Shown: in pieces, positions 1-741 of the stretch
Position numbering within the stretch: the first letter of the stretch is position 1
Layout: each line of letters begins with the position of its first letter
Origin: a virus
Lineage: Duplodnaviria > Heunggongvirae > Uroviricota > Caudoviricetes
Strand: one strand, 5' to 3'
DNA length: 4,727 nt
IMG/VR virus record: IMGVR_UViG_2609459839_000002
The notes under the pieces: generated by a model
What the model was told of the DNA's origin: nothing
Seen by the model: only the letters and a program-made list of their open reading frames with translations
Databases searched by the model: none
Program-made: the position numbers and the translations under genes

Positions 1-741
1 GCAGAGCGCAAGAGGGCGCAGCGAGAGAGGGAAAGAAAGCGGGAACAAAATGGCGATTGTCACGGCGCGTCACGAAATGTCACGCACATGTCACGACGAG
101 TCACGACAGATAAAGATACAGATAAAGATACAGATCAAGAAGATCAAAACACTATGGTCCATGGCGTAAAAAACGCCACGAACCAGGCAGGGGATGTTCA
201 GACCGTCAATCCTGGTCAGCCAGCAGGCACGACACCGGAAGCCGATTCAGCGTATGCGCTGAAAGCCGATTCGGGCGCTGTGCAGCAGGTGATGACCGCA
301 AGGCCGGAGCAATCACACCAACTGCAGCAGCCTGAAGCCGATTCCGCCATTCAGCGGGAAGCCGATCGGGTAGTCCCGGAAAACACCGGGCAGCCTGTGA
401 GACGAGTGGATTATCCGGATGTGTTCGAACAGGTCTGGCGGGAATACCCGTTGCGTGCTGGGGCAAACCCGAAGAAATCCGCTTTCAGTGCCTGGAAGGC
501 CAGATTACGCGAGGGGGTGTCACCAGAGGCCATGCTGGATGGCGTGAGGCGTTACGCAAGATACCTTGCGGCTACCGGTAAAACGGGAACGGAATTTGTT
601 CAGCGAGCGACGACGTTTTTTGGACCGGACCGGAATTTTGAAAACCCCTGGCTGCTCCCGGTAAGCGGCACGAACAACCAGCGTTGTGTGAATCATATTT
701 CTGAACCGGATACCGAAATTCCACCGGGCTTCAGGGGGTAA
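1..741 (+). CDS. Phage replication protein, 5'-partial, with DnaT-like (primosomal protein I) C-terminal domain. Frame is open from position 1; in-window candidate starts are ATG 88 and ATG 154.
   Basis: Frame 1 has no stop from position 1 to TAA at 739-741. The C-terminal tail ...NHISEPDTEIPPGFRG closely matches the E. coli DnaT tail ...SEPDSQIPPGFRG as I recall it. Upstream of that domain lies about 110 aa of charged, low-complexity linker (KDTDKDTDQEDQ...). Confidence 0.7.
   Translation, partial: AERKRAQRERERKREQNGDCHGASRNVTHMSRRVTTDKDTDKDTDQEDQNTMVHGVKNATNQAGDVQTVNPGQPAGTTPEADSAYALKADSGAVQQVMTARPEQSHQLQQPEADSAIQREADRVVPENTGQPVRRVDYPDVFEQVWREYPLRAGANPKKSAFSAWKARLREGVSPEAMLDGVRRYARYLAATGKTGTEFVQRATTFFGPDRNFENPWLLPVSGTNNQRCVNHISEPDTEIPPGFRG
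59..105. repeat. Iteron-like array: five direct GTCACG repeats starting at 59, 69, 79, 90 and 100 (10-11 bp spacing); candidate phage replication origin
   Basis: Direct reading: gtcacggcgc gtcacgaaat gtcacgcacat gtcacgacga gtcacg. One helical turn between copies, placing them on the same DNA face. Confidence 0.5.
108..149. repeat. Short tandem repeats next to the iterons: agataaagatac x2 (108-131), then agatcaaga / agatcaaaac (132-149) with two GATC Dam sites
   Basis: Direct reading of the sequence. A-rich repeated block immediately downstream of the iteron array, as seen beside iterons in lambda-type origins. Confidence 0.4.

Follow-up and report, generated by a model that had tools for sequence, protein, structure and literature searches.

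A putative lambda/SPP1-type replication origin within the initiator gene of a Rac/Qin-like prophage of Escherichia coli

The replication origin of phage lambda lies in the middle of gene O, where an iteron array is followed by an AT-rich tract (PMC7466680, PMC6022878). In phage SPP1, oriL is situated within gene 38, where repeated boxes bound by G38P adjoin an AT-rich unwinding element (PMC5737612). Both are experimentally proven origins with iterons and an unwinding element inside O or gene 38, and in both the N-terminal part of the initiator binds the iterons and the adjacent tract opens (PMC7466680, PMC6022878, PMC5737612). A protein that joins an O-like N-terminus to the DnaT C-terminal motif has been described as DopC (Brezellec et al. 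2017, PMC5509034). The recruitment of DnaB/DnaC by DnaT itself remains open according to the 2026 preprimosome structures, and the sections consulted contain no statement on the role of the extreme C-terminus of DnaT (PMC13377028). The locus described here, found in a lambdoid prophage, resembles the lambda and SPP1 origins in its layout, and positions 59–150 are likely, judging from sequence and from these analogies, to form the central part of a phage origin of replication that lies inside the gene for its initiator.

The initiator gene and its prophage

The window (the whole stretch of 4727 nt that was analysed) covers part of a Rac/Qin-like lambdoid prophage of E. coli. Positions 1–3949 differ by 3 mismatches from the chromosome of E. 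coli strain E275a (NZ_CP035865, locus L001, in which L001 6001 corresponds to window position 1), and the region is found in 2036 of 5426 complete E. coli genomes. The module is also carried by viable phages (Tritos, Evi and mEp460-like). Frame 1 has no stop from position 1 until the TAA at 739–741. The preliminary description held that this reading frame continues past the window edge, and comparison with NZ_CP035865 bears this out: since the ORF starts 330 nt upstream (in both L001 and Tritos), no in-frame stop lies just before position 1, and the complete product has 356 aa. It is annotated in L001 and Tritos as 'phage replisome organizer' or 'DNA replication protein O', and matches PHROG 3729, 'replication initiation protein' (E = 2.9e-256). 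The gene order (cI-like, cro-like, YdaT-family, initiator) places it at the position of lambda gene O. Features of the gene are listed in Table 1.

Table 1. Features within and around the 3' part of the initiator gene (window coordinates).
Feature	Position	Strand	Basis
Initiator, 3' two-thirds, codons 111–356 and TAA stop	1–741	+	ORF, NZ_CP035865 comparison, PHROG 3729
Disordered inter-domain linker CDS, residues 128–244; holds array 2 and AT-rich tract	52–402	+	AF2 pLDDT about 30
Iteron array 2, five GTCACG cores (59–64, 69–74, 79–84, 90–95, 100–105)	59–105	+	repeat finding, shuffles
AT-rich, purine-rich tract, (ACAGATAAAGAT)x3 then GATCAAAAC	106–150	+	GC, codon bias, 25-locus comparison
Imperfect inverted repeat TGGTCCATGGCGT / ACGCCACGAACCA	155–185	.	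predicted dG -8.7
Globular, mainly helical C-domain, residues 245–330 (YPDVFEQVWREYP...FFGPDRNFENPW)	403–660	+	pLDDT about 90
C-terminal tail, residues 334–356 (...QRCVNHISEPDTEIPPGFRG), copies host DnaT extreme C-terminus	670–738	+	PDB 6aep, 2ru8, 9zbt

Downstream of the initiator the prophage carries DUF977 (LygF/Ren-like), DUF4406 and DUF4752 genes. No P-, DnaC- or DnaB-like gene is present, and no further replication gene is annotated in the full Tritos genome. The DUF4406 protein (window 1201–1497, 98 aa) matches PHROG 355, 'nucleoside 2-deoxyribosyltransferase' (E = 2e-47), and its ORF overlaps the neighbour on each side by 4 nt (GTGA at 1201 and 1494). On the minus strand, 2129–3612 holds two ORFs (310 aa and 184 aa) that overlap, neither of them with a match in Pfam or PADLOC; the GC content of this block is 32–37%, compared to 51–56% for the early genes, the 184-aa product has a membrane-embedded look, and Tritos carries a different gene at this place. 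The block resembles a moron and may be an accessory or defence cassette. An insertion sequence begins at about 3950 (TGTACTGCACCC..., window 3950–4727), and it is exactly at its start, after 3949, that the identity to L001 collapses. Its first ORF (3995–4516, 173 aa) has transposase-type HTH_28/HTH_Tnp_1 domains, and we take the element to resemble IS150 (IS3 family). Rfam detects a full-length sok antitoxin RNA at 3869–4024 (RF01794, 82.6 bits), and where the window has the insertion sequence the uninterrupted relative L001 carries hokD (10,019–10,174); the hok/sok locus of the window is cut by the element. An oddity is that the sok match extends about 75 nt into the insertion sequence.

The AF2 model of the initiator gives a helical N-domain (residues about 1–126, pLDDT 60–84), a long linker and a C-domain, a putative effector domain, with a low-confidence tail at the end. 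Neither domain matches a Pfam family at E ≤ 0.01, and no O-family match appears even at E ≤ 10. Fold matches hint at a DnaD-NTD-like winged helix as a candidate fold of the N-domain; a profile of 23 N-domains found nothing among PDB sequences. The match to Phage_rep_org_N is sub-threshold yet co-linear over model positions 1–119, with scores of 16.5–17 bits for PF09681 (cut-off 23.3) and 16.2 for TIGR01714 (cut-off 49.8), and only 3 of 23 homologs reach E ≤ 0.01 with PF09681/TIGR01714. Membership of this Pfam/TIGRFAM family (SPP1 G38P type) was therefore rejected, the scores being below the curated thresholds. The C-terminal domain was previously proposed to be DnaT-like, a view that does not hold: besides the missing Pfam match, PF17948 was not detected in it, hhalign against PF17948 sister proteins gave E = 0.36 (probability 0.16%), no DnaT fold match was found, and the likeness to DnaT is limited to the tail. 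The same C-domain is joined to unrelated N-domains elsewhere. Sister initiators from E. coli O157 prophages (P0071, P0094, P0101) carry the same N-domain (about 85% identity in an alignment that covers the N-terminal 40% of the query) together with a genuine PF17948 DnaT-like ssDNA-binding C-domain. At least one PF17948-type locus (E. albertii, L006) has both of the repeat arrays described below, followed by a lambda-P-like gene.

Residues 332–356 of the initiator align with residues 158–179 of the 179-residue DnaT (PDB 6aep, 2ru8 and 9zbt; E = 0.02–0.06) and with model positions 156–179 of 179 of NF002770, and the DnaT tail motif SEPDxxIPPGFRG is present at the C-terminus. Three initiators with unrelated N-domains end in the same 19 residues, RCVNHISEPDTEIPPGFRG (window 670–738; L003 2394–3482; L004 2098–3063), and similar tails terminate the initiators of L017, L024 and L029. 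Other relatives have a different conserved tail (...EPLDxEER...LDxxDW...). The C-terminal tails appear to be exchangeable, putative docking peptides. Initiators that share the C-terminus alone have repeats of their own in the equivalent linker, as in phage HannyBb, where GGTCAAAATG/GTTCAAAATG occurs four times at spacings of 23–24 or 47 bp. Lambdoid O genes are known to follow the same modular logic.

Phased repeats and the adjoining AT-rich tract

The hexamer GTCACG occurs five times in the window, on the plus strand only, with starts spaced 10, 10, 11 and 10 bp apart (array 2). Tandem Repeats Finder and a second repeat finder report the array alike. Among 2000 dinucleotide-preserving shuffles the longest chain of one hexamer at 10–11 bp had three copies (in 6 shuffles), and none had a chain of four or more. 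The positions of five direct repeats one helical turn apart, as first noticed in the preliminary description, and their non-randomness are thereby confirmed. As the period is not a multiple of 3, copies of the core fall into different codon phases and specify different amino acids, and in array 2 all three phases occur (C-H, (A/M)-S-R and V-T).

A second array (array 1) lies 260 bp upstream of array 2, outside the window and within the coding sequence of the N-domain. Its cores start at gene nt +128, +138, +148 and +159 (L001 5799–5835) and read GTCACG, GTCACG, GTCACA and GTCACG; an inverted copy, CGTGAC, follows at about +191/+192. Since the cores are repeated in both arrays, the peptide ASRNVT is present twice in the initiator. 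Array 1 encodes residues 42–56, which in the AlphaFold model form a low-confidence loop between two helices of the N-domain. No striking AT-rich tract adjoins it. Phage Tritos, whose complete genome is 46.4 kb, has GTCACG clusters (at least three copies within 60 bp, either strand) nowhere but in the two arrays of the initiator gene. From the sequence, the predicted origin is bipartite, consisting of arrays 1 and 2; array 1 may alternatively serve an auxiliary or copy-control function and not belong to the minimal origin. A fragment limited to window 1–200 omits array 1 and so may miss part of the origin. Among relatives (L001 5799–5867, 200–130 nt upstream of the window; L006; P0003) the copy number of array 1 ranges from 3 to 6. 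Those with extra copies have longer loops, for example VTTCHGVSRRGH in P0003, and E. albertii L006 has six copies; each extra iteron lengthens a surface loop of the N-domain, so that evolution of the origin directly edits the protein.

Array 2 is directly followed by a 45-bp AT- and purine-rich tract, probably a DNA-unwinding element. Both repeat finders report ACAGATAAAGAT at 106–141 as two exact copies and one at 83% identity. The tandem repeats of 12 bp and 9 bp with two GATC sites noted earlier are thus present, the 9-bp repeat being weak and arising from GATCAAGAA/GATCAAAAC, and the GATC sites lying at 133 and 142. GC content falls to 0.33–0.35 at 101–160, within a gene of about 0.6 GC. 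The tract translates to TDKDTDKDTDQEDQ, a disordered charged linker, so the DNA repeats are mirrored in the protein as had been proposed. GATC (Dam/SeqA) sites were rejected as a design element, being variable or absent in relatives, E. albertii included. In lambda, a palindrome or inverted repeat lies beyond the AT-rich tract. The inverted repeat found beyond the tract here is not supported as a conserved counterpart, as 16% of random blocks from the same locus fold as well as its dG of -8.7, and over 25 loci (DNA-parameter folding) a median of 37% of random same-locus blocks are equally stable.

Homologous loci

A scan of one genome per species gave 37 usable loci encoding the N-domain (42–98% identity); these belong to gamma- and betaproteobacteria, together with a small number from metagenome bins. 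The same layout is seen in about 26 of 38 N-domain homologs (52–98% protein identity), in hosts that include Escherichia, Serratia, Rahnella, Pseudomonas, Bordetella, Acidovorax, Aquitalea, Chromobacterium and Gilvimarinus. It comprises array 1, with GTCAC(G) at gene nt +128/138/148/159 and in most cases the inverted copy at +192, and array 2, with 3–5 copies at 10–11 bp near +386 to +430, which is followed by the (A/C)CAGATAAAGATAAAGA... GATAAAG tract. After this tract the initiator proteins diverge.

Among the 19 homologs that align without gaps, to which the comparison was limited, the entropy at third codon positions is 0.11 within cores and 1.40 elsewhere in the domain (Mann-Whitney p = 3e-5; as the compared sequences are related, p-values overstate their independence). 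Over the same 19 homologs the entropy is 0.10 at core positions and 0.74 in spacers. Part of the conservation of array 1 could be at the protein level, as the amino acids encoded there are also conserved. In the tract, AT content is 50–85% in all 25 loci checked, 23 of which reach at least 65%, and this extends to hosts of 60–69% GC; purine content is at least 75% in 19 of the 25. Asp is encoded by GAT in 94% of cases in the tract, compared to 46% in the rest of these ORFs (Fisher p = 1e-20), and Lys by AAA in 85% compared to 52% (Fisher p = 1.6e-9). These counts show that codon usage in the tract is driven toward A/T. The tract is also conserved in sequence, as (C)AGATAAAG / CAGATA units with a 6-nt period (window 106–141; equivalents in L006–L037), and this conservation spans iteron classes as well as beta- and gammaproteobacteria. 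Since the sequence and not just the composition is kept, AT-richness alone is insufficient as an explanation, and a sequence-specific role, such as ssDNA binding or a host factor site, is possible.

More distant N-domains keep the two-array layout with different cores. Both arrays carry GTAACG in L025, L029, L035 and L037 (hosts Pantoea, Enterobacter, Marinobacter and Sphingomonas) and CGAACG in L032, L033 and L036 (Pseudomonas and other loci), classes that do not rest on an automated match of the top periodic k-mer between arrays, a test that the GATAAA tract confounds. In a few distant homologs (L031, L034, L038, L039 and L041) the arrays are weak or just one is seen. The sequences indicate that both arrays switch core sequence in concert with the N-domain. 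In tblastn searches the N-domain was found in all 37 loci while the cI-like, cro-like, YdaT, C-domain and LygF proteins were found in just 2–5; the arrays track the initiator N-domain only, and the neighbouring genes and the C-domain are freely exchanged. These sequence comparisons point unambiguously in the direction of cores and tract being maintained as DNA and belonging to the N-domain.

What follows the same N-domain and arrays differs between loci: a lambda-P-like gene (L006, L007), a DnaC/IstB-like gene (L021, L029, L037), a primase-helicase (L016) or nothing recognisable (L017, L024). A loader gene is adjacent to one (L029) of the four tail-bearing initiators of the set and absent beside the other three, and Stx phage 75/02 has the same tail with a different N-domain and a DnaC-like gene next door. 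Because L029 and 75/02 have loader genes, the link between the presence of the tail and a missing loader gene is only suggestive.

Interpretation and comparison with known systems

The locus is very probably, as read from its sequence, a lambda/SPP1-type intragenic origin of a new family, in a module without a helicase-loader gene. It is read as an origin because its layout matches the proven origins of lambda and SPP1, and the repeats are read as DNA-level sites because of the frozen synonymous core positions, the linkage to the N-domain only and the concerted switches of core sequence. A lambda-type organisation had been put forward in the preliminary description. The phased repeats, the AT-rich tract, their place in linker-coding sequence and the gene O position agree with that proposal; no O similarity is detectable in the protein, and a second array lies beyond the window. 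In the mechanism that we envisage, the N-domain would be a winged helix of the DnaD-NTD/replisome-organizer type, binding the cores as monomers stacked along one face of the helix. Arrays 1 and 2 would be joined in a looped or wrapped nucleoprotein complex, like the lambda O-some, and the resulting stress would open the adjoining GATAAAG-type tract. The C-domain and the DnaT-like tail would then bring in the host helicase machinery, either DnaB-DnaC directly or via PriA/DnaT partners, and transcription from the cro-side promoter would read through the origin, as in lambda.

Could the arrays instead be control sites to which the initiator binds for autorepression, titration or copy control of the handcuffing type (as at incA of P1), with the true origin elsewhere in the phage? 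Plasmids P1 (oriR/incA), F and RK2 have two iteron sets near the initiator gene, bound by their own initiator, and the two separated arrays recall such origin-plus-control sets, as does the lack of a striking AT-rich tract next to array 1. This explanation is nevertheless improbable for the locus as a whole, because array 2 always joins a tract with A/T-biased codons, which is the signature of an unwinding element and not of an operator, because the full Tritos genome has no further GTCACG cluster, and because the layout equals that of the proven lambda and SPP1 origins. For array 1 alone it may hold. We give a somewhat lower probability to binding of the repeats by some other host or phage factor (a repressor, nucleoid, packaging or recombination protein) in place of the encoded protein. 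The conservation of the (C)AGATAAAG tract across iteron classes would suit a host factor site, but the arrays follow the N-domain only, with neighbouring phage genes shared by 2–5 of the 37 loci, and the core switches as the N-domain diverges, both within enterobacteria and between distant hosts, which speaks against recognition of the cores by a conserved host factor.

That the repeats are a by-product of a low-complexity charged linker or of replication slippage, with no DNA-level role, is scarcely credible. The tract does encode TDKDTDKDTDQEDQ in a disordered linker, and copy number does differ between relatives. The idea is already contradicted, however, by a 10–11 bp period that is no multiple of 3 and leaves the core to be read in three phases, by the frozen synonymous core positions, by the recurrence of the same core 260 bp upstream inside a folded domain, by the extreme codon bias of the tract and by the absence of comparable chains in 2000 shuffles.

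The preferred reading, an intragenic origin served by the encoded initiator, can be extended to a more speculative and rather doubtful proposal: a bipartite origin placed wholly in the initiator frame of a loader-less module, in which the DnaT-mimic tail of about 20 residues would be a portable docking peptide to the restart machinery (PriA and/or DnaB-DnaC). If the tail does dock in this way, it would mark the surface of DnaT that recruits the helicase, a point left open by the 2026 preprimosome structures (PMC13377028). If the bipartite part is true, one array would coincide with the codons for a surface loop of the domain by which it is read, and gain or loss of iterons would alter the protein. 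With no loader gene and a copy of the DnaT tail, the module offers a simple genetic handle on the DnaT-type link to helicase loading. The origin has been left unannotated though the module is present in so many complete E. coli genomes (2036/5426), and it would be the predicted replication start of Rac/Qin-like prophages after induction. The three core classes (GTCACG, GTAACG and CGAACG) provide a natural series of initiator/iteron specificity switches for the recognition of short phased sites, and the gene illustrates how a DNA signal and a protein can constrain each other within one reading frame. No description of this initiator family, of GTCACG iterons or of a 'replisome organizer' combined with DnaT was found in the literature searched, and oriJ of Rac is named there as an active origin only, with no sequence given.

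A close comparison is with lambda (also phi80, 82 and the Stx phages 933W and P27), where the origin is likewise embedded in the initiator gene, a feature seen here from sequence. As in lambda O, a DNA-binding N-terminal domain (putative here), a flexible linker and a C-terminal effector domain follow each other, the gene comes after cro/cII in the early right operon, the iterons follow the N-domain, and modules recombine just past the origin. Lambda differs in having a single array of four 18-bp iterons, hyphenated dyads each bound by an O dimer, whereas the present cores are 6-bp direct repeats at 10–11 bp, arranged in two arrays 260 bp apart, one of them in the N-domain's own coding sequence. 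Unlike lambda O, the N-domain has no detectable O similarity (no Pfam match), and in place of a P gene there is a C-terminus that ends in a DnaT-like tail. The similarity to SPP1 G38P lies in the NCBI name 'replisome organizer', the sub-threshold Phage_rep_org_N matches and the tentative DnaD-NTD-like fold matches. G38P also binds a second repeat region, to which the second array is comparable, but the second SPP1 site, oriR, is in a distant region of the genome while the two arrays here are 260 bp apart in the same gene. SPP1 has its own loader and helicase (G39P, G40P) and this module has neither.

In P1, F and RK2 the arrays flank the rep gene and have units of 17–22 bp; here both arrays are intragenic and reside in a lambdoid prophage. 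The counterpart in the host is the primosomal protein DnaT of E. coli, whose last 20 or so residues match those of the initiator (SEPDxxIPPGFRG, at the very C-terminus). Combining an initiator with DnaT, which had been considered unusual, is not unprecedented since the DopC fusion has already been described (PMC5509034). DopC, from a domesticated lambda-O-like gene of some gammaproteobacteria, likewise joins an initiator-type N-terminus to the DnaT C-terminal motif; it differs in its O-type HTH N-terminus, in that no iterons were found, in being paired with the P-like DopE and in its chromosomal function. Intragenic origins that combine iterons and an AT-rich tract with a modular initiator are already well known. 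Different here are the 6-bp direct cores spaced by one helical turn, the two co-evolving arrays, one of which lies within the coding sequence of the putative DNA-binding domain, an N-domain family outside the curated Pfam models, and a module that lacks a loader gene and whose initiator ends in a DnaT-mimic tail.
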